Below, one piece after another: positions 11,700-29,308 of a DNA stretch of 35,451 bases. The position numbers and the translations under genes are program-made. The notes beneath the pieces were generated by a model. It had not been told where the DNA came from. It did no database searches and saw nothing but the letters and a program-made list of their open reading frames with translations. Each line of letters opens with the position of its first letter. Position 1 is the stretch's first letter. This DNA is from a virus (Duplodnaviria; Heunggongvirae; Uroviricota; Caudoviricetes), in the IMG/VR virus record IMGVR_UViG_2695420367_000003, positions 1 through 35,451 of that record; one strand, given 5' to 3'.

Positions 11700-11900
11700 T
11701 GACCTGAGCTCTCACGGGGCGGAAGGCGCGCGGGTTTTCGCTATTTATGAAAATTTTCCGGTTTAAGGCGTTTCCGTTCTTCTTCGCCGTAACTTAATGT
11801 TTTTATTTAAAACCCCCCCTGAAAAGAAAGGAAACGACAGATGCTGAAAACGGGCTTTTTGGCCTTTGTCGTTTCCTTTCTCTGTTTTTGTCCGTGGAAT
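11700..11900 (+). promoter_or_regulatory. cos: Helper cos site (cosN-like 12-mer at about 11717-11728, plus cosB with R sites and IHF site) upstream of Nu1
   Basis: …GGGCGGAAGGCG CGCGGGTTTTCGCTATTTATGAAAATTTTCCGGTTTAAGGCGTTTCCGTTCTTCTTCG… is nearly identical to the lambda cos region as I recall it, except within the 12-mer. Confidence 0.8.
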
Positions 11901-17849: not shown

Positions 17850-18125
17850 ATGTCGATGTACACAACCGCCCAGCTGCTGGCGGCAAATGAGCAGAAATTT
17901 AAGTTTGATCCGCTGTTTCTGCGTCTCTTTTTCCGTGAGAGCTATCCCTTCACCACGGAGAAAGTCTATCTCTCACAAATTCCGGGACTGGTAAACATGG
18001 CGCTGTACGTTTCGCCGATTGTTTCCGGTGAGGTTATCCGCTCCCGTGGCGGCTCCACCTCTGAATTTACGCCGGGATATGTCAAACCCAAGCACTTAGC
18101 ATGGCTTTCTGAGGCTTTCGTGTAG
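17850..18125 (+). pseudogene. E: Major capsid protein E, 5' portion only (codons 1 to about 82), interrupted by the satellite insertion
   Basis: MSMYTTAQLLAANEQKFKFDPLFLRLFF…SEFTPGYVKPKH matches the lambda gpE N-terminus, then diverges into 9 unrelated codons and a stop at the insertion junction. Confidence 0.9.
18085..18094. repeat. Left junction core (attL-like) AACCCAAGCA
   Basis: Identical 10-mer at 28518-28527; joining the flanks restores …GTCAAACCCAAGCATGAAGTG… (VKPKHEV of E). Confidence 0.75.
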
Positions 18126-18257: not shown

Positions 18258-19493
18258 ATGGCTGGCGAGAACAAACTGAGCGACAAAGCACTTAAAGGAT
18301 ATCTGGGGAAACCCAGAGAAAAGCAGATCACCATTGCTGATGGAAAGGGGCTTTCTATTCGTGTGAGTACCAAGGGGGCTGTGAGCTTTGTTTTCTTCTA
18401 CAGGTTAGCAGGTGGCCGGGCTGCTCCGGTCTGGCTAACGTTGGGTAAATATCCTGATATGTCACTCAAACAGGCAAGGGAAAAGCGCGACGAGTGCCGT
18501 GGTTGGTTGGCTGACAAACGTGATCCGCGTATCCAGATTAAGATTCAGGCTGAAGAACGCTTAAAGCCGGTCACAGTGGAGGATGCACTAAATTACTGGT
18601 ATGAAAATTACTGTAAGGTGCGTCGTAAAACTCATGCTGTAACGCTTGGCAGATTTCGAAAGCATATCTTTCCCTATATCGGTCATTTGCCCGTAAATGA
18701 CACTCACCTATATGAATGGCTGGACTGTTTTGACCGAATTAAACGTAATGCACCAGTTATGGCGGCGTATGTTTTTTCTGACACTAAATTAGCTCTTCGT
18801 TTTTGTCGGGTACGCCAGTACGCGACGTGTGATGCTTTAAAGGATTTGCGCATGAGTGATGTGGGGCAGATTGCAGGTAAGCGGGATCGGGTTCTGGATG
18901 AAGCCGAACTGGGCCAGCTCTGGAAGGCAATTTTTGTCGAGCCTGATTTAAAACTAATGTCTGAATACACGCGAAAAATGTTTGTGCTTTGTACAGTATT
19001 TGGATGTCGAATGAGTGAAGCCCGATTATCAGAATGGAGCGAATGGGATCTCGAAAGTTGGGTTTGGACTGTACCAAAAGATCACTCAAAAACTGGTGTT
19101 GAAATCGTCAGACCAGTACCTGAAATTCTACGACAGTGGGTAACGGATGTTCACGAAGAGACAAAACATACTGGTTATGTGCTGGGAAGTCTGCGAATTA
19201 GAGAAAGCGTAAGCAAGATTGGGGGGAAAATCGGTAAACGTTTGGGCCATGAAAAACAATGGTCACTACACGACCTTAGAAGAACGCTTTCAACCCATCT
19301 GAGTGATTTGGGCGTTGAGTTTCATGTAGTGGAGCAGCTGTTAGGCCATGCGCTACCTGGCGTGGCAGGTGTTTACAACCGGAGTAAGTTTATGGCTAAA
19401 AAACTGGATGCTCTGGAACTCTGGACTACATATCTCAATAGCATCGCAGCTGCTGATTCAAAAGTGACAATCCTCAAACAAAAGGCTGGTTAA
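18258..19493 (+). CDS. int: Tyrosine integrase (P4-type, with N-terminal arm-binding domain)
   Basis: N-terminal …LSDKALKGYLGKPREKQITIADGKGLSIRVSTKGAVSFVFFYR…; catalytic-region motifs HDLRRT…LLGH…VYNRS; true ATG at 18258, the track start is upstream. Confidence 0.88.
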   Translation: MAGENKLSDKALKGYLGKPREKQITIADGKGLSIRVSTKGAVSFVFFYRLAGGRAAPVWLTLGKYPDMSLKQAREKRDECRGWLADKRDPRIQIKIQAEERLKPVTVEDALNYWYENYCKVRRKTHAVTLGRFRKHIFPYIGHLPVNDTHLYEWLDCFDRIKRNAPVMAAYVFSDTKLALRFCRVRQYATCDALKDLRMSDVGQIAGKRDRVLDEAELGQLWKAIFVEPDLKLMSEYTRKMFVLCTVFGCRMSEARLSEWSEWDLESWVWTVPKDHSKTGVEIVRPVPEILRQWVTDVHEETKHTGYVLGSLRIRESVSKIGGKIGKRLGHEKQWSLHDLRRTLSTHLSDLGVEFHVVEQLLGHALPGVAGVYNRSKFMAKKLDALELWTTYLNSIAAADSKVTILKQKAG

Positions 19494-19494
19494 C

Positions 19495-19728
19495 ATGAAA
19501 AAAATGGCAATTGTCGATAAAAAGGGTCTGGAGTACATTCCTAACATTGACCGTATGATCCGCGAAAAAGAATGCCGTGAGTTAACTACTCTTGCTAATA
19601 GCACTCGATGGAAGTTAGAGAAAGAAGGAAAGTTTCCAAAGCGTATTAAAATAGGTGCCACTGCCGTAGCATATCGCCTTTCGGAGGTGCAGGCGTGGAT
19701 TCGTGGGGAATGGTACTTAAATAAGTAA
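19495..19728 (+). CDS. alpA: AlpA-family HTH regulator/excisionase-like protein
   Basis: …ECRELTTLANSTRWKLEKEGKFPKRIKIGATAVAYRLSEVQAWI… fits the AlpA pattern; directly follows int. Confidence 0.8.
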   Translation: MKKMAIVDKKGLEYIPNIDRMIREKECRELTTLANSTRWKLEKEGKFPKRIKIGATAVAYRLSEVQAWIRGEWYLNK

Positions 19729-19768: not shown

Positions 19769-20494
19769 TTAAATCATGTCTGCCTTATTTCCTAATTTTA
19801 TGGAGCAATCCTCTAAAAGATGCCCGATGAACTTATGAGTTCCAATAACATAATCTTGAAGCCTATATTCCATTCCTAATAATGACTTGTTCTCTTTGTC
19901 CTTGAAAAAAGGAAAAGAGGCAAGGTTTTCATCGACAATATAAAGGTGTTTGATTTTGTTGTTTAAAACCCTAGTTTCGTTAATGACATCGTAAGAATCA
20001 AGTTGGGAGAGGTCAATACCATAACTTAAGTATTTCTTTTTTAATTTATCCCATGTATATGGAACTTTAACTTGACTTTCAGGTATTTCTTTAATAATTG
20101 CTTCTAGCAAAGAGTATGCCATGGTACTAAACTGTTCAATAATAGCCCAAAGATTAATTACGACACTGTCATTGGCAAAAAATGAGGCTTTTCTATTAAG
20201 ATCATCATAATAACCAACCATCTCTCTATGTCTGGCTTGAGAAATCAAGGCCATTTCATGCACTTCATCGTCTAATAAGTCTGGATTATATTGGGGAGTG
20301 TTGTCTGCAATTTTTTGTATCTCCTTAAGATTTATGTTATATGTATGATAAACAAATGAGTGAAATACTATTAGATCTTCAAGTCGGAACGAAAATTTCC
20401 CAAGTAGAGACAGGAATCTACTATCATGAGGGAAATAATGTGGGATAGGATTGTCTGTTAAATTATATTCACTTATTCGTTTTAGATTTTGCAT
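19769..20494 (-). CDS. Hypothetical 241-aa protein, AT-rich cargo (function unknown)
   Basis: Long ORF, visibly AT-rich versus surrounding genes, co-oriented and 24 nt downstream of the RHH gene; no motif I recognise. Confidence 0.6.
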   Translation of the reverse strand: MQNLKRISEYNLTDNPIPHYFPHDSRFLSLLGKFSFRLEDLIVFHSFVYHTYNINLKEIQKIADNTPQYNPDLLDDEVHEMALISQARHREMVGYYDDLNRKASFFANDSVVINLWAIIEQFSTMAYSLLEAIIKEIPESQVKVPYTWDKLKKKYLSYGIDLSQLDSYDVINETRVLNNKIKHLYIVDENLASFPFFKDKENKSLLGMEYRLQDYVIGTHKFIGHLLEDCSIKLGNKADMI

Positions 20495-20716: not shown

Positions 20717-20817
20717 TGTACCTATTGCTTAGTATGCTTCTTGATAGGTACACACCTTATCATGTTTTATTACTCTGTAACAACGCCCTGCAGTGCTCGC
20801 AACACATACAGGGCGTT
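20717..20817. promoter_or_regulatory. Divergent control region with two 9-bp inverted repeats, each with an 18-bp spacer
   Basis: TGTACCTAT…ATAGGTACA (20717-20752) and AACGCCCTG…CAGGGCGTT (20782-20817), between the divergent RHH gene and the 20853 ORF. Confidence 0.5.
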
Positions 20818-20852
20818 TAACCACCAACGATAGCAACAGTATCGAGGTAGCT

Positions 20853-21056
20853 ATGAGAAATCATACCACACACCCGCAAGGGCGGGACCCGCACAACCTG
20901 AATAAATACATCTGGCGTTTTATCGCCCTGAGTACGGCACAACCGCGCGTGATTACCATCGAGGCCACCAGCGAACAGGAAGCCCGCCAGCAATCCCCAA
21001 CTGGCTGCGTGATGATATTCGCCGCCCGTATTCGTCAGGAGGTGTGCCATGAATGA
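20853..21056 (+). CDS. Hypothetical small protein (67 aa)
   Basis: GAGGTAG RBS before the ATG; first gene of the rightward operon leading to the primase. Confidence 0.5.
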   Translation: MRNHTTHPQGRDPHNLNKYIWRFIALSTAQPRVITIEATSEQEARQQSPTGCVMIFAARIRQEVCHE

Positions 21057-21276: not shown

Positions 21277-21564
21277 ATGAAAAATAAATTTTCTGGCTTT
21301 ATTGCCAGCGGTCAAACTCATTCAAAAATCAGCCTTGGGGATATTTTCAAAGACAGCTATGGCTATCGGGTAAAGATTATTTCGGTTGATGATCGTCGTG
21401 TCTCTTATTTGCGTGATGGTTATGATTTTGAATGTGTTATGCCGCGTCAGCAGTTCGAAAGAGATTTCATTCTGGTAAAAAATTGCAAGACAGATAATCA
21501 GAGGCGTGCCGCAGGCTATATCCGTAAAATTCGGGCAATGTTAGTTGCCGGAGGTAACAAATGA
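21277..21564 (+). CDS. Hypothetical small protein (95 aa)
   Basis: GGAGAA RBS; stop overlaps the primase start. Confidence 0.5.
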   Translation: MKNKFSGFIASGQTHSKISLGDIFKDSYGYRVKIISVDDRRVSYLRDGYDFECVMPRQQFERDFILVKNCKTDNQRRAAGYIRKIRAMLVAGGNK

Positions 21565-23381
21565 AACGTGCTCCGAACTTAAAATACCAACCGCGCGACA
21601 AAATGACGGAAGTCATCATTTTTGCTGGCAGTGATGCCTGGAGCCATGCAAAAGAATGGAATGAATGGGCAGGTAAGCATATTGCAGCAGATGATACACC
21701 ACCAGTCATTCTGGGTACAGAACAACTGGAAAACCTGGATGATATGCAAATTATCGATGAAGGCCGTCATTATGTGCGTGTTTATCGTGCTGGAAAGATT
21801 GCAGAGAAAAGTCTGACGAAGGTTGCGACATTACTTGCTATTGCAGGCGTAAAGGAAGCACGTTGTTACCGTAGCTTTGTTGATCGAGAGCCTGAAGACT
21901 GGACTCCGCGCCTTGTCGGCCTAAAAGCTGAAGCGGAGCATGGGGAAAGTCTGGTGATTGAACTGCCAGTGAAGAAGGCAGAGCGCAAAAATGACGAGCG
22001 TGCTTCATCTTTGGCGTTGAATCAGATGGGGGCCAGCCAGCGCGGTGAAGTTCTCCTTGCACATTACGGCGGCGAACTGGCAATCAATGCCGACTCTGAC
22101 ACCGTTCATCATTACAACGGCGTTGTATGGGAGCCGGTTCAGGATAAAGAGTTACAGCGTGCTATGGCGCAGATTTTCATTGATGCGGAGATCAGCTATT
22201 CGCAGAACGCTATTAAATCGGCGGTAGATACCATGAAGTTAAGTTTGCCTGTAATGGGGAATACAGCCCGTAACCTGATTGGATTCAGTAACGGGGTATT
22301 TGATACCAGAACTGGTAATTTTCGGGAGCATAACAAAAACGACTGGTTGTTAATTGCCAGTGAATTACCTTTCAGCCCACCAGCAGAGGGGGAAACGCTG
22401 GCAACACATGCGCCGAATTTCTGGAAGTGGTTGCGCCGTTCGGTGGCTGAGAATGACCGCAAGGCAGATCGCGTACTGGCGGCATTATTCATGGTGCTGG
22501 CGAACCGGTACGACTGGCAGTTATTCATTGAGGTAACAGGGCCGGGGGGAAGTGGTAAAAGTGTGATGGCGGAGATTTGCACCATGCTGGCGGGTAAGGC
22601 GAATACAGTATCAGCAAGCATGAAGGCGCTGGAAGATGCAAGGGAACGTGCGTTAGTGGTTGGCTTTTCGCTGATTATCATGCCGGATATGACCCGCTAC
22701 GCTGGTGATGGGGCAGGGATTAAGGCCATTACAGGCGGTGACAAGGTGGCAATTGACCCGAAACACAAAGCCCCCTATTCAACGCGTATTCCGGCAGTAG
22801 TGCTGGCGGTTAACAATAACGCCATGTCATTCAGTGACCGCAGCGGGGGGATCTCACGTCGTCGGGTGATATTCAATTTTTCGGAAGTTGTACCGGAGAA
22901 CGAACGCGATTCGATGCTGGCGGAAAAAATAGAAGGTGAGCTGGCGGTAGTGATTCGTCATCTGCTTACACGGTTTGCTGATCAGGACGAAGCCAGACGC
23001 CTGTTATATGAGCAGCAGAAATCTGAAGAAGCACTGGCGATAAAGCGAGAGGGGGATTCGCTGGTGGACTTCTGCGGCTATCTCATGGCATCGGTAATGT
23101 GTGATGGCCTGTTAGTGGGTAATGCTGAAATTGTGCCATTCAGCCCACGCAGGTATCTCTATCATGCCTATCTGGCTTATATGAGGGCACATGGGTTTGG
23201 TAAACCTGTAACACTGACGCGCTTCGGTAAAGATATGCCGGGGGCAATGGCGGAATATGGCAGGGAGTATATGAAACGGAAAACGAAGCACGGTTTGCGT
23301 TCAAACGTGACACTGACGGAGGAATCAGAAGACTGGATGCCATCATGTGTATCGGTCACTAATGACGATAGCAAAAATTAA
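21561..23381 (+). CDS. Phage/plasmid primase-helicase (P4-alpha-like domain with SF3 helicase Walker A GPGGSGKS)
   Basis: 606 aa; Walker A and downstream helicase-like motifs; immediately followed by the iteron array. Confidence 0.85.
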   Translation: MKRAPNLKYQPRDKMTEVIIFAGSDAWSHAKEWNEWAGKHIAADDTPPVILGTEQLENLDDMQIIDEGRHYVRVYRAGKIAEKSLTKVATLLAIAGVKEARCYRSFVDREPEDWTPRLVGLKAEAEHGESLVIELPVKKAERKNDERASSLALNQMGASQRGEVLLAHYGGELAINADSDTVHHYNGVVWEPVQDKELQRAMAQIFIDAEISYSQNAIKSAVDTMKLSLPVMGNTARNLIGFSNGVFDTRTGNFREHNKNDWLLIASELPFSPPAEGETLATHAPNFWKWLRRSVAENDRKADRVLAALFMVLANRYDWQLFIEVTGPGGSGKSVMAEICTMLAGKANTVSASMKALEDARERALVVGFSLIIMPDMTRYAGDGAGIKAITGGDKVAIDPKHKAPYSTRIPAVVLAVNNNAMSFSDRSGGISRRRVIFNFSEVVPENERDSMLAEKIEGELAVVIRHLLTRFADQDEARRLLYEQQKSEEALAIKREGDSLVDFCGYLMASVMCDGLLVGNAEIVPFSPRRYLYHAYLAYMRAHGFGKPVTLTRFGKDMPGAMAEYGREYMKRKTKHGLRSNVTLTEESEDWMPSCVSVTNDDSKN

Positions 23382-23394
23382 ACTTATGGAATAA

Positions 23395-23620
23395 CTGTTC
23401 ACCACTGTTCACCCTGTCATAAATATCTTTTATATCAGTATATTATAGGGTGAACAGTTATTTATGAACTGTTCACCAAACTATTCACTGTTCACCTTTT
23501 TGATTGTTTATTGAGCTTCAAGGGTGAACAGTGGTGAACAGTTGGTGAATAGTTTTTGTGAAACTGTTCACCCATTAACATTATGAATTAAAAGAGAAAA
23601 TATCAAAAGGTGAACAGGTG
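23395..23620. repeat. Satellite replication origin: at least 10 copies of the iteron GGTGAACAG/CTGTTCACC in both orientations
   Basis: Seen directly: the motif recurs at about 23396, 23406, 23449, 23469, 23489, 23524, 23534, 23545 (variant), 23565 and 23610 within an AT-rich stretch downstream of the primase. Confidence 0.8.
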
Positions 23621-23668: not shown

Positions 23669-23914
23669 ATGACAGCGAAGCACACAAAAAAATCACAATC
23701 GCACGCCCTTGATTTGACGGAACACTGGTTAAGGGTGTCGATAAAAATCATCGACCGCAACGCCGGGGAAGGATACGCGAAAGCACATCCCGAACTGATT
23801 AGCGCATTCATGACAACGGCGGCTGCAAACTTTGCCACTCTGACCGAACGGGAGATTGCTGAAGCGGAGGAAGTGACAACAATCAATATTAAGTCCGGAG
23901 AGCAGGCAGCATGA
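23669..23914 (+). CDS. Hypothetical protein (81 aa)
   Basis: ORF overlapping the SSB-like gene start; no recognisable motif. Confidence 0.45.
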   Translation: MTAKHTKKSQSHALDLTEHWLRVSIKIIDRNAGEGYAKAHPELISAFMTTAAANFATLTEREIAEAEEVTTINIKSGEQAA

Positions 23915-24360
23915 TGGCGCAAATATCAGTTTACGGGCGGTTGGTGGACGACCCGCAGACAAAACAGACCAGCAAGGGCACCCCCATGACGCTGGCGCGT
24001 ATGGCGGTATCAATGCCCTGCAGTCAGTCGGATGACGGTCAGGCGACGATGTGGTTATCTGTCCTGGCGTTTGGCAGACAAGCCGACGCACTGGCAAAGC
24101 ATCACAAAGGCGAACTCCTGAGCGTGGCGGGTAACATGCAGATGAGCCAGTGGACTGGACAGAACGGCGAAACGCGGCAGGGCTGGCAGGTTATCGCAGA
24201 CAGCGTAATCAGTGCGCGATCGGTGCGACCGGGCGGCAAAAAAGGCCAACAGGGGCAGGCTACTGACGAACTGAACAGAGCAAAACAACAGGCAGATCAG
24301 CAAGGAAGCCAGCCACCAGTGGGAGATAATGAGCAATGGGGAGATGATATCCCGTTTTAA
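23911..24360 (+). CDS. SSB-like single-stranded DNA-binding protein with C-terminal acidic DDIPF tail
   Basis: OB-fold-like N-terminal region parallels E. coli SSB; Gly/Gln-rich linker; C-terminal …EQWGDDIPF. Confidence 0.7.
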   Translation: MMAQISVYGRLVDDPQTKQTSKGTPMTLARMAVSMPCSQSDDGQATMWLSVLAFGRQADALAKHHKGELLSVAGNMQMSQWTGQNGETRQGWQVIADSVISARSVRPGGKKGQQGQATDELNRAKQQADQQGSQPPVGDNEQWGDDIPF

Positions 24361-24375
24361 ATATTGCCAATAAAA

Positions 24376-24401
24376 AAGGCCGGAAAAAATAAATTTTCCG
24401 G
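24376..24401. terminator. Hairpin GCCGGAAAA-AATAAA-TTTTCCGGC downstream of the SSB-like gene
   Basis: Perfect inverted repeat with A-rich and T-rich arms; a possible terminator or attenuator before the capsid genes. Confidence 0.4.
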
Positions 24402-24576
24402 CATGCTACATAAATCCCGACCAAAGGGAGTGAAGATATTAACACTAATTGTCCGCACTGAAGTTGTCACCCCAAAACTTTATACAACATTGCACTCGGT
24501 TGCATGTGTTCGCATGACAAATATCGGTGGTAGCATATATCCACAATTATTTTTAATGAATGCAAAGAGGATGCGT

Positions 24577-25617
24577 ATGGTTGATTTATATTCGCCTACT
24601 CAGCTTGTACAGGTGGTTAATGCTGTAGATGTACAAAAACAACTAAATGCGTTGTTTACCAGTTTGTTTTTTACTCGCTCGGTAATGTTTGAATCGCGCG
24701 ATATTATTCTTGATACAATCGACGATCCAAATATCCCAATTGCAGCGTTTTGTTCTCCTATGGTGGGTAGTAAAGTTTCACGTGACGAAGGGTACGAATC
24801 AAAAACAATTCGTCCAGGCTATATGAAGCCGAAAAGCAGCATTGATCCAAATAAGTTAGCTGTGCGCCCTGCTGGTGTATCACCTGAGCAATACAATGCT
24901 TTTGGGGCACGTAATATTAAAGTTAAACAGGCGATTGTAAATCAAGCTAAAGCTATTCGTGCACGTATTGAATGGCTTGCTGTTCAGGCAATCACAACGG
25001 GGAAAAATATCATTGAGGGCGATGGTATTGAACGTTATGAGCTGGACTGGAATATTAAACCACAAAATATCATCACTCAGTCTGGCGGTGCTGAGTGGTC
25101 AGGTAAGGATAAAGAAACTTTTGATCCAAATGATGATATTGAGAGCTACGCAGAATTTAGTGAGGGCGTCACTAATATTATCATTATGGGCGGTAATGTA
25201 TGGAAGAAATACCGTTCATTCAGAGCGATAAAAGAGGCTCTGGATACCCGTCGTGGTTCTAATTCCGAACTGGAAACGGCCCTTAAAGACCTTGGTGATT
25301 CGGTGAGTTTTAAAGGGTATATGGGCGATGTTGCGATTGTTGTATACAGCGGGCGTTATACCGACGAGGACGGAACTGAAAAACATTTCCTTGATCCTGA
25401 TTTGATGGTGCTTGGCAATACGGCTCTTCAGGGGATTGTCGCCTATGGCGGTATTCAGGATCCGGAGCTAATCCGAATGGGGCTGACTAAAGCCGAACTT
25501 GCACCGAAAAACTATATTGTGCCTGGTGATCCGGCTATTGAATATGTGCAGACACATTCAGCACCACAGCCAATACCGGCCCGCATCAATCGTTTTGTTA
25601 CCGTTCGCATTGGCTAA
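24577..25617 (+). CDS. Satellite-encoded major capsid protein, diverged homolog of lambda gpE
   Basis: C-terminal 180 aa align to lambda E (…SGGAEWSGKDKETFDPNDDIESYA…LDTRRGSNSELETALKDLG…GDVAIVVYSG…); N-terminal half diverged but collinear (RPGYMKPKS vs TPGYVKPKH); GAGG RBS 6 nt before the ATG at 24577. Confidence 0.85.
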   Translation: MVDLYSPTQLVQVVNAVDVQKQLNALFTSLFFTRSVMFESRDIILDTIDDPNIPIAAFCSPMVGSKVSRDEGYESKTIRPGYMKPKSSIDPNKLAVRPAGVSPEQYNAFGARNIKVKQAIVNQAKAIRARIEWLAVQAITTGKNIIEGDGIERYELDWNIKPQNIITQSGGAEWSGKDKETFDPNDDIESYAEFSEGVTNIIIMGGNVWKKYRSFRAIKEALDTRRGSNSELETALKDLGDSVSFKGYMGDVAIVVYSGRYTDEDGTEKHFLDPDLMVLGNTALQGIVAYGGIQDPELIRMGLTKAELAPKNYIVPGDPAIEYVQTHSAPQPIPARINRFVTVRIG

Positions 25618-25626
25618 GGGGGAGCA

Positions 25627-25968
25627 ATGGCTACTCATTACACTGAACTCATGGCTGGCACTGAAGCACTGGTGACTACACTGGGGATATTTTCAGCTAA
25701 TAAAGGGGTAATTCATGCATTTACGCCACTGATGCAGGAAGATGCAACAGGTGCACTGGTGGTATGGGATGGTTCGAGCGTAGGTAAAGCGGTTTATGTT
25801 TCCGCTGTACAAATCGACACCGCGAAAAAAACACAGGCTCAGGTCTATAAGACAGGTGTCTTAAATGTTGATGCTCTGAACTGGCCTGAGTCTGTTAAAG
25901 AACTGTCAGTAAAGGTTGCAGCGTTTGTTGGCTCAGGTATTTCTGTTCAGCCGCTGGCTCGTGTGTAA
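25627..25968 (+). CDS. Satellite-encoded head decoration protein, diverged homolog of lambda gpD
   Basis: 113 aa; shares the spaced pattern TPLM…WDG…G…Q.YK.G…WPE…AF.G..ISV with lambda D (copy at 17462-17794). Confidence 0.65.
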   Translation: MATHYTELMAGTEALVTTLGIFSANKGVIHAFTPLMQEDATGALVVWDGSSVGKAVYVSAVQIDTAKKTQAQVYKTGVLNVDALNWPESVKELSVKVAAFVGSGISVQPLARV

Positions 25969-25979
25969 AGGGGGATACA

Positions 25980-26363
25980 ATGCAGAATGATTACAATGAC
26001 CTTAAGCCAATTGCCGAAATGATGTACCCGAATCAAGCTGTAGAGGAATTAAAAGCTATCGCTGACAAAATGTGTTTAAGCGAGCGCCTTGTTGATATGA
26101 ATCAGGTGATGGAAATTACAACCCTGAGTCGTCGTACACTGCTAAACCTTGAGGCTAGTGGAGAGTTCCCGGAGCGTGTGCAGGTTACGGAAGGGCGTAA
26201 GGCCTGGTATTTAAGTGAAGTGATCGACTGGATAAATAATATTCCTCGCGCTTCTGAATATTGCCGCGTACCTGTCCCAAAAAAGCCAGATGCGGCGCTA
26301 TGCCTCAAGATTGAGCGTGTACGCCGCAATGCACGGGATGGTCGCTATAAGCTGATTGGTTGA
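25980..26363 (+). CDS. HTH DNA-binding protein (AlpA/MerR-like motif) adjacent to satellite cos
   Basis: …MEITTLSRRTLLNLEASGEFPERVQVTEGRKAWYLSEVIDWI… helix-turn-helix; last gene before cos. Confidence 0.6.
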   Translation: MQNDYNDLKPIAEMMYPNQAVEELKAIADKMCLSERLVDMNQVMEITTLSRRTLLNLEASGEFPERVQVTEGRKAWYLSEVIDWINNIPRASEYCRVPVPKKPDAALCLKIERVRRNARDGRYKLIG

Positions 26364-26413: not shown

Positions 26414-26600
26414 GTTACGGGGCGTCAGGCGCGCAGATTCTTGCTATTTATGACAATTTTCTGCGATTTGCCGTTTCCGTTCTTCTTCCTCGTAACTTAG
26501 TGTTTTTACTAGAAATACCCTCTTAAAAGAAAGGAAATGACAGGTGCTGAAAACAGGCTTTTGGGTCTCCGTCATTTCCTTTCTCATTTTTATCTAAAAG
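26414..26600 (+). promoter_or_regulatory. cos: Satellite cos site (cosN-like 12-mer at about 26420-26431 plus cosB-like R and IHF elements), no terminase gene attached
   Basis: About 190 bp closely similar to the helper cos region (…CGTTTCCGTTCTTCTTC…AAAAGAAAGGAAA.GACAG.TGCTGAAAAC.GGCTTTT…TTTCCTTTCTC…); not followed by Nu1. Confidence 0.8.
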
Positions 26601-26846: not shown

Positions 26847-28163
26847 TTATCTTGAAGAAATTTTAGGCAGGCTTTTTAAAAATAAATCTTTATTTCTACT
26901 TGCATCAGTTAAAAGTGTTAGGAATATTTTATCTGTAGGAGTGCATGTGCTCTTGTTTAACAGTAATTCACCAAGTTTCTGTAATCGAGAGAATTGCCCA
27001 TCCTCTTGGATTCTGTGACGAAGTGTACTATCATTTTTAATAACATCAACAAATGCAGAAACCATGTTAATATCAAAGTATTCAAACATTTCCAATATTA
27101 AAGGTGCAGCCCCATTTGAATAAAAATTCTTCCTTCCATACTGATAGCTGAAACCACGATGGCCAACATAAGTTTTTGTAATGGCTGAAACAAATTCAAC
27201 AATATTATCTTCAGGGACGAAACTCGAGAATGGTAATAATTGGGTTACGATTTTTTCCTCTTCTGACCAATTATCTAAAGACTCGGTGAGTTTATTAATG
27301 AGAGGCTCAATAATAACTTTTCGGGATGCAGGGCTAATATACATCAGTCCATCTACCAATAGTATGAATTGTTGTGCCTTCTCTATCTTATTGTTGTTTC
27401 CTGAAACTAAATACTTGTCAAATTGTTGGCCGACTTTACGTCGGTCGTCTTTTGAAAGTAATGTCCATAAAATAGGTGCGCAAAATTCAATGTTGTTTCT
27501 GAGTTCACTTGATATATTGGATGAGCAGTATGTGCCAAAAAAACGAGAGGATAATTCACTGATATAAATTGCAGGTAGATCTGAAAAGGCTTGCTTAACT
27601 GCCAGACTATTTTTATTAAATGTTGCCGAATCCATTTCTGAAAGATATGTAGATATATCTATGATGGCTGGTGGAAACTCTTTAGAAAGAACGTATTTAT
27701 TACAATCATTAATCAGGTTCACTACTTTGATTAAATCAGGGTCGCTACTTTGTGGATGTCCACCAAATAGATTCCTGGTTTCTCTAGCTTGTTGTAATAG
27801 TTTCTGACCTTCTCGATCGATAACTCCTATTTTAAATGCTCCATCTATTAAATCAAAGTCGCTCACATAATCCTGAAAATCTTCATACGTTTTAATTTCT
27901 TTTTTTTGTTTACACTCTTTGTTGAATAGATCTAGGCTACGATGAATTATCTTTTGACGTAAATCATCAACTACAGCATTCCAGTAAGCAGTGATGGCAC
28001 TTCTATAACCTTTTACAGGAAGAACTCTTATTGCTTCTGAAATATATGGGCAGTCAACTACATCATGCCTCACAGTTGAGAGCGCAGTTTGTAACAATGT
28101 AACTTCTGTAGAGTCTAGTGGAGTTGGCTGCACTAAATGAGAACTTATCTCTGTACCCTTCAT
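26847..28163 (-). CDS. Hypothetical 438-aa protein, AT-rich cargo (function unknown; candidate accessory or defence gene)
   Basis: Long uninterrupted ORF, visibly AT-rich, between satellite cos and the right junction; no motif I recognise. Confidence 0.6.
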   Translation of the reverse strand: MKGTEISSHLVQPTPLDSTEVTLLQTALSTVRHDVVDCPYISEAIRVLPVKGYRSAITAYWNAVVDDLRQKIIHRSLDLFNKECKQKKEIKTYEDFQDYVSDFDLIDGAFKIGVIDREGQKLLQQARETRNLFGGHPQSSDPDLIKVVNLINDCNKYVLSKEFPPAIIDISTYLSEMDSATFNKNSLAVKQAFSDLPAIYISELSSRFFGTYCSSNISSELRNNIEFCAPILWTLLSKDDRRKVGQQFDKYLVSGNNNKIEKAQQFILLVDGLMYISPASRKVIIEPLINKLTESLDNWSEEEKIVTQLLPFSSFVPEDNIVEFVSAITKTYVGHRGFSYQYGRKNFYSNGAAPLILEMFEYFDINMVSAFVDVIKNDSTLRHRIQEDGQFSRLQKLGELLLNKSTCTPTDKIFLTLLTDASRNKDLFLKSLPKISSR

Positions 28164-28517: not shown

Positions 28518-28527
28518 AACCCAAGCA
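28518..28527. repeat. Right junction core (attR-like) AACCCAAGCA
   Basis: Identical to 18085-18094; the downstream sequence continues in the E reading frame. Confidence 0.75.
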
Positions 28528-29308
28528 TGAAGTGAATCCGCAGATGACCCTGCGTCGCCTGCCGGATGAAGATCCGCAGAATCTGGCGGACCCGGCTTAC
28601 CGTCGCCGTCGCATCATCATGCAGAACATGCGTGACGAAGAGCTGGCCATTGCCCAGGTGGAAGAGATGCAGGCAGTTTCTGCCGTGCTTAAGGGCAAAT
28701 ACACCATGACCGGTGAAGCCTTCGATCCGGTTGAGGTGGATATGGGTCGCAGTGCGGCGAATAACATCACGCAGTCCGGCGGCACGGAGTGGAGTAAGCG
28801 TGATAAGTCCACGTATGACCCGACCGACGATATCGAAGCCTACGCGCTGAACGCCAGCGGTGTGGTGAATATCATCGTGTTTGATCCGAAAGGCTGGGCG
28901 CTGTTCCGTTCCTTCAAAGCCGTCAGGGAGAAGCTGGATACCCGTCGCGGCTCTCATTCCGAACTGGAGACAGCGGTAAAAGACCTGGGCAAAGCGGTGT
29001 CTTATAAGGGAATGTATGGCGATGTGGCCATCGTCGTGTATTCCGGACAGTACGTGGAAAATGGTGTCAAAAAGAACTTCCTGCCGGACAACACGATGGT
29101 GCTGGGCAACACTCAGGCACGCGGTCTGCGCACCTATGGCTGCATTCAGGATGCGGACGCACAGCGCGAAGGCATTAACGCCTCTGCCCGTTACCCGAAA
29201 AACTGGGTGACCACCGGCGATCCGGCGCGTGAGTTCACCATGATTCAGTCAGCACCGCTGATGCTGCTGGCTGACCCTGATGAGTTCGTGTCCGTACAAC
29301 TGGCGTAA
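28520..29308 (+). pseudogene. E: Major capsid protein E, 3' portion (codons about 80 to 341), separated from its 5' portion by the satellite
   Basis: …KHEVNPQMTLRRLPDEDPQNLADPAYRRRRIIMQNMRDEELAIAQ… to the C-terminus …DPDEFVSVQLA matches lambda gpE; no own start codon or RBS. Confidence 0.9.

Follow-up and report, generated by a model that had tools for sequence, protein, structure and literature searches.

The window that we analyzed, a viral stretch of 35,451 nucleotides, is a lambda-like prophage in which O, P, Q, Nu1, gpA, the portal, the C protease, D, FI, Z, V and H can be recognized. The major capsid gene, E, is interrupted: an N-terminal part extends to 18094, and a C-terminal part runs from 28518 to 29308. 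[quoted passage not shown] Elsewhere in the prophage, the interval between P and Q (1811-6799) carries a 1302-aa inverse-autotransporter gene (intimin/invasin-like) and, on the opposite strand, a BD-FAE/alpha-beta-hydrolase gene, both of which look like moron cargo.

Table 1. Features of the satellite and of its ssb gene, with positions in the window.
Feature	Position	Strand	Details
attL core AACCCAAGCA	18085..18094		within helper prophage major capsid gene
Satellite tyrosine integrase	18258-19493	+	Arm-DNA-bind_3 and Phage_integrase domains; start from translation
AlpA-like gene	19495-19728	+	
241-aa AT-rich gene	19769-20494	-	about 35% GC; variable zone after int and alpA
Icd-like gene	20793-21056	+	
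DUF4222 gene	21277-21564	+	
pri	21561..23381	+	D5_N / DUF5906 / Pox_D5 primase-helicase, P4 family
Putative satellite replication origin	23395..23617	both	ten GGTGAACAG iterons
orf81	23669..23914	+	81-codon ORF, phrog_1231
ssb	23911..24360	+	149-aa SSB-family ORF, stop included; PF00436, TIGR00621, phrog_44; RefSeq homologues named SSB
OB-fold DNA-binding domain	23911..24219	+	residues 1-103; AF2, Foldseek, alignments
Disordered hypervariable linker	24220..24324	+	residues 104-138; pLDDT <50, indels, weak conservation
Acidic C-terminal tip DNEQWGDDIPF	24325..24357	+	residues 139-149
Lambda-E-like major capsid gene	24577-25617	+	satellite's own
Lambda-D-like decoration gene	25627-25968	+	satellite's own
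Second AlpA-family gene	25980-26363	+	
cos-like copy	26417-26591	+	81% identical to prophage 11714-11888 upstream of Nu1
438-aa cargo gene	26847-28163	-	AT-rich (32-36% GC); PF27235.1 (precomputed), hypothetical-protein family
attR core AACCCAAGCA	28518..28527		helper capsid gene resumes

The insert is a helper-embedded PICI of the '11capE' type, and thus an element of a published kind. Tommasini, Mageeney and Williams (2023), who described PICIs of this type, reported for them a 10-bp block of att identity in a lambda-E-like capsid gene (PMC10111431). The present element resembles these PICIs in its length of about 10.4 kb, in its residence in the capsid gene of a lambdoid prophage, in having a capsid gene of its own and in the SSB gene of its Replication zone. 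It sits in capsid E, one of the late genes of a lambdoid prophage, with a short block of att identity; it shares the orientation of the late genes, and its zones follow one another in the order int, AlpA-like, Icd-like, DUF4222, pri, iterons, ssb, capsid and decoration. The earlier note had called the SSB satellite-encoded, and the gene does lie inside this PICI between the 10-bp att repeats. Moreover, the cos-like copy matches the cos-proximal region of the prophage with 81% identity over 177 bp, a resemblance that would fit cos-type packaging by the helper terminase.

Two minus-strand genes occupy what appear to be the more changeable parts of the element. The 241-aa protein matches no entry of Pfam, NCBIfam, PHROGs or PADLOC, and sister islands hold other genes in its zone. 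The 438-aa protein likewise matched nothing in PADLOC, PDB or NCBIfam; its family is widespread, with relatives of at least 50% identity in Campylobacterota, Xanthomonas, Stenotrophomonas and Cronobacter. In a sister island at the same site, with a near-identical split capsid gene (NZ_CP019944), TIR-domain cargo stands where the 438-aa PF27235 protein stands here, and for this reason the slot looks like a variable hotspot for cargo or defence genes. PADLOC also returned nothing for the SSB or for the product of orf81. At gathering thresholds, no Rfam family matched anywhere in the window, not even the C4/isrK immunity RNAs that some PICIs are reported to have.

The ssb gene stands at the end of a module that begins with pri. 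Ten GGTGAACAG iterons, nine of them exact and one with a single mismatch, separate pri from orf81, and no exact copy of the iteron occurs elsewhere in the window. Because the origins of GN-PICIs lie directly 3′ of pri (PMC6092414), the iteron block is the probable origin of satellite replication, and ssb follows it at a distance of about 300 bp. The stop codon of orf81 overlaps the start codon of ssb by 4 nt (ATGA), and the translation of the two genes is therefore probably coupled. In four other Escherichia PICIs (L001, L002, L003 and L006), whatever the type of replicase, an orf81 homologue stands directly before ssb and likewise overlaps it by 4 nt, whereas tblastn found no homologue in 42 species-representative loci, E. 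albertii among them. AlphaFold2 models the orf81 product as a helical hairpin with medium confidence (pLDDT 65), and the protein belongs to no Pfam or NCBIfam family. Its identification as the packaging-redirection protein Rpp or as another protein of solved structure was considered and rejected, since there was no sequence match in the PDB (best E 0.13). On the other side of ssb there are about 215 bp of non-coding DNA before the capsid gene. A GC-containing 9-bp hairpin (24379..24402) begins 19 nt past the ssb stop and is preceded on the plus strand by a run of A, so that it resembles an intrinsic terminator for the minus strand only.

The reading frame of ssb opens with ATG and, as the earlier note had stated, encodes 149 amino acids ending in GDDIPF; the translation begins with MMAQISVYGRLV and closes with NEQWGDDIPF followed by the stop. 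A copy in E. coli DSM 103246 that is 98.9% identical was given the same start and length by PGAP, under the name 'single-stranded DNA-binding protein'. The gene coincides with a peak in GC content (58.5% at 23900-24300, versus 38-52% in the remainder of the satellite), which may reflect compositional constraint or a separate origin.

Alignment to SSB profiles, which had been proposed as a check, places the protein firmly within the family. It scores 62.5 bits against PF00436 over residues 2-99 (curated cutoff 26), 71.6 bits against TIGR00621 over its full length (curated cutoff 53.95) and 132 bits against phrog_44, and with such scores the assignment is not a matter of chance likeness. The protein is also as diverged as had been claimed, sharing 23% identity with E. 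coli SSB over 98 aa (E. coli sequence identical to PDB 1eqq/4mz9). It is not a member of the enterobacterial chromosomal group PRK09010 (22.7 bits versus a cutoff of 260) nor of the plasmid-type group PRK13732 (19.3 bits versus a cutoff of 265), and it reaches the cutoff of no specific SSB subfamily in NCBIfam, all scores being far lower. In a sequence search of the PDB, the best match was the Thermotoga SSB 1z9f (E 2.5e-12), with E. coli SSB entries near E 1e-5.

Structure prediction was proposed earlier as the means by which the OB-fold-like reading of the N-terminal region could fail, and the predicted structure has an OB fold. The AlphaFold2 model, built from an alignment of 49 relatives, places strands at residues 3-11, 16-19, 25-36, 44-54, 69-82 and 88-101 and a helix at 55-62. 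Over residues 1-103 this is the SSB topology of beta1-beta3, helix and beta4-beta5. Block-mean pLDDT in the folded part is 74-92 and falls to less than 50 over residues 104-149, which are thus predicted to be disordered. When the model was compared with the PDB by Foldseek, the best 50 matches consisted entirely of bacterial SSBs, with E values down to 3.5e-10 and a TM score of about 0.8 when normalized to the target.

Four aromatic residues of E. coli SSB stack on ssDNA (W40, W54, F60 and W88), and three of them are retained here as W48, F54 and W81, the aligned counterparts of W54, F60 and W88, with little or no variation among the 49 relatives. The position of W40 is a conserved Cys in the satellite family, and that of H55 is Leu in the satellite protein. 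At the other end of the protein, D145 never varies in the alignment of 49 sequences and P148 and F149 hardly ever do, whereas the linker that separates the tip from the core shows indels and little conservation. This combination of a conserved core and tip with an unconstrained linker is the pattern expected if the SSB is functional and its tail serves to dock partners.

The tail had been called a canonical DDIPF. That description is correct for this copy but does not extend to the family, since close relatives, mainly from E. coli, keep only D-x-[I/V/L]-P-F. Among the best 120 cluster representatives, the commonest ending is GDNIPF (43), followed by GDDIPF (19), GDGIPF (15), SDDIPF and EDEIPF (8 each) and rarer forms. 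In the 36 Enterobacterales species loci described below, the linker is hypervariable and the tips PPFDDEAPF, PPYDDQIPF, PPYDDDF and DDEIPF recur; most of these loci have an acidic tip ending in F, and several copies are truncated or end otherwise.

The satellite protein resembles E. coli SSB in its OB fold, its disordered linker and its acidic tip ending in DDIPF. It is shorter (149 versus 178 aa), and its linker is short, polar and charged where that of E. coli SSB is rich in Gly, Gln and Pro. Two acidic residues directly precede IPF, versus three in E. coli SSB, and the second is often N or G in the family. An aromatic residue at position -7, W in this copy and Y in the family consensus, parallels the Phe in the E. 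coli ending MDFDDDIPF. Given the replacement of W40 by Cys and the shorter acidic run, the DNA-binding mode and the partner affinities of the satellite protein may differ from those of host SSB.

The satellite SSB group is a distinct and modest-sized branch of the SSB family. Searched exhaustively with HMMER, 1.84 billion representatives yielded 10 sequences at E<=1e-30, 337 at E<=1e-10 and 7289 at E<=1e-3. Sequenced phages contained no relative of more than 32% identity, which indicates that ssb was not recently captured from a sequenced phage. DNA related to ssb is present in 1795 of the 5426 complete E. coli genomes, some of which have as many as six copies; 2332 of the 2334 matches are chromosomal, and all copies among the matches listed from the 1795 genomes are annotated as SSB.

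A pattern-based scan that took a single genome for each species located the family at 36 Enterobacterales species loci, which represent about 20 genera. In 32 of the 36, a satellite-type replicase on the same strand ends within about 800 nt upstream of ssb. The replicase itself varies. The gene lies downstream of a D5 primase in the window, in L001, in L003 and in EcCICFT073, of a RepA-family helicase in the O157:H7 island L002, and of a TOPRIM/DUF927 protein in L004. L003 (NZ_CP024256.1 1751855-1766085) is like a capsid-forming PICI, with its own capsid, protease, portal, connector, HNH, terS and terL genes; there, the same primase-orf81-ssb module as in the window is followed by a ProQ/FinO-family gene.

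EcCICFT073, the model Gram-negative PICI, provides a close comparison. Its SSB (WP_000126698.1, 136 aa; CFT073 1384538-1384948) is 67% identical to the satellite protein and also ends in GDDIPF, although its linker is 13 aa shorter. The gene order is likewise shared, with a primase, an origin gap, an orf81 homologue overlapping the start of ssb, ssb itself and, later, capsid and decoration genes. The differences are that a PerC gene lies between ssb and the capsid gene and that EcCICFT073 occupies a chromosomal site between roxA and phoQ, whereas the present element is inserted in a prophage gene.

The placement of ssb beside a replicase and an origin, retained while the type of replicase changes, supports a role in replication. 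That the protein may assist replication of the satellite had already been suggested in the earlier note, and it is a role that we too would infer, from the pri-ori-ssb position and its retention across PICIs with three types of replicase. We consider it fairly probable that this is an accessory replication SSB that joins the single-stranded DNA of the satellite to the partners of host SSB. The replication module of the helper-embedded PICI would then consist of pri, the iteron origin, orf81 and ssb. Upon induction, the SSB would be made together with the primase-helicase and would coat the single strands exposed at or behind the satellite origin and at forks. Its C-terminal tip could dock in the pockets of host SSB partners, for example the chi subunit of Pol III, PriA, RecQ or ExoI, such that the host elongation and repair machinery would act on satellite DNA while replication of helper and satellite makes ssDNA abundant. 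The analysis shows the SSB family assignment, the predicted fold, the three aromatic contact positions, the conserved tip and the linkage to replicase and origin; the binding of ssDNA, the oligomeric state, the timing of expression, the host partners and the benefit to replication we infer.

Such a protein would probably boost replication and not be essential to it. A plasmid with the rep gene and ori of EcCICFT073 alone was reportedly able to replicate in E. coli DH5alpha (PMC6092414). If this clone lacked ssb, as we suspect, then host SSB suffices and the basic replicon can do without the PICI SSB. In addition, some of the gene profiles that appear in part of the published PICI catalogue, such as the Klebsiella profile 'Primase,H.35,SEC-C,...', are without SSB (PMC10111431). 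Both observations disfavor an essential role.

Alternatively, the protein could act away from forks as a cofactor for recombination or ssDNA protection, together with Bet/Exo of the helper or with RecA/RecFOR of the host, where it would build or protect concatemers for cos packaging or shield incoming DNA. Phage SSB genes commonly lie beside annealase genes, and in lactococcal phages the match to this SSB falls on genes for Sak-like annealing proteins. Gene 36 of phage SPP1 shares one operon with a recombinase and an exonuclease (PMC3561973), C-terminal tails of SSBs are reported to serve as determinants of compatibility for RecET systems (PMC13490951), and GN-PICIs are packaged as concatemers of phage length (PMC10111431). 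However, profile searches with Pfam, NCBIfam and PHROGs found no annealase or recombinase gene in the satellite, and it is the replicase and origin that ssb accompanies, not the packaging genes. We therefore regard this alternative as very unlikely.

The position of the gene also bears on a possible connection with immunity systems that sense SSB, namely Retron-Eco8 and DARNA, which the satellite protein might modulate either as an abortive trigger that benefits the satellite or as a decoy. Phage SSBs are documented to activate both systems, and the satellite has variable cargo slots, one of which holds the TIR-domain gene in the sister island. Yet ssb lies in the replication zone, outside these slots, its family is conserved among islands whose cargo differs, and PADLOC does not match its product, all of which make such a function extremely unlikely.

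More is known about G36P, the SSB of SPP1, which, like the satellite protein, is encoded by a mobile element and has a C-terminal tail resembling that of the host SSB. G36P works with the initiation and helicase proteins of the phage and with the elongation proteins of the host (PMC3561973). It differs in being biochemically characterized and 48% identical to the SSB of its host, and in coming from a phage of Gram-positive bacteria, not from a satellite, in which its gene lies among recombination genes. The SSBs of F-type conjugative plasmids (PRK13732) are likewise second SSBs on enterobacterial mobile elements, and the satellite protein falls outside their group.

With G36P as a precedent and a conserved tip that would allow it, competition of the satellite SSB with host SSB for its partners, which the earlier note had raised, is plausible. 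A stronger version would hold that the protein is mainly a poison or decoy that occupies ssDNA, sequesters host proteins that bind SSB or forms mixed tetramers with host SSB. As proposed for G36P, replication of the helper or host would then be impaired while the replisome of the satellite tolerates the protein. G36P supports SPP1 replication and blocks the B. subtilis replisome even at saturating SsbA (PMC3561973), and PICIs are known to hinder their helpers (PMC6092414). The satellite protein, moreover, carries a host-like tip on an OB core that is very different from that of the host. On the other hand, a constant spot beside the replicase and origin is what would be expected of a replication gene and not of an interference gene. 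Interference of EcCICFT073 with its helper, for its part, is attributed to redirection of packaging. Hence, a protein devoted mainly to interference seems to us unlikely. Distinctly unlikely as well is an arrangement in which the SSB and the small, predicted helical orf81 product, paired with it in Escherichia by probable translational coupling, form a selective hub that directs partners to satellite DNA and depresses replication of the helper or host. If it were to exist, it would be the satellite counterpart of G36P and a second route of helper interference in PICIs, acting at the level of replication.

As a sequence feature, the ssb gene is nothing new, because it is routinely annotated and the type of element is published. 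The gene has in fact been catalogued: the E. coli copies listed bear an SSB annotation, the model PICI EcCICFT073 has a copy, and SSB was placed in the 'Replication' category of PICIs (PMC10111431). That existing annotation and placement lower the significance that the earlier note had implied. The published Replication zone comprises 'Primase, SSB, DUF5906' and mapped origins, with the SSB categorized only (PMC10111431), and our literature search for work on satellite or PICI SSBs found this categorization and no functional study or experiment. Nevertheless, roughly every third complete E. coli genome has one or more additional SSB genes from this family, and the tail of the satellite protein looks compatible with the partners of host SSB. 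If the protein affects replication of the host or helper, this would bear on how PICIs replicate, on how they interfere with their helpers, on compatibility in recombineering and on immunity systems that sense SSB.
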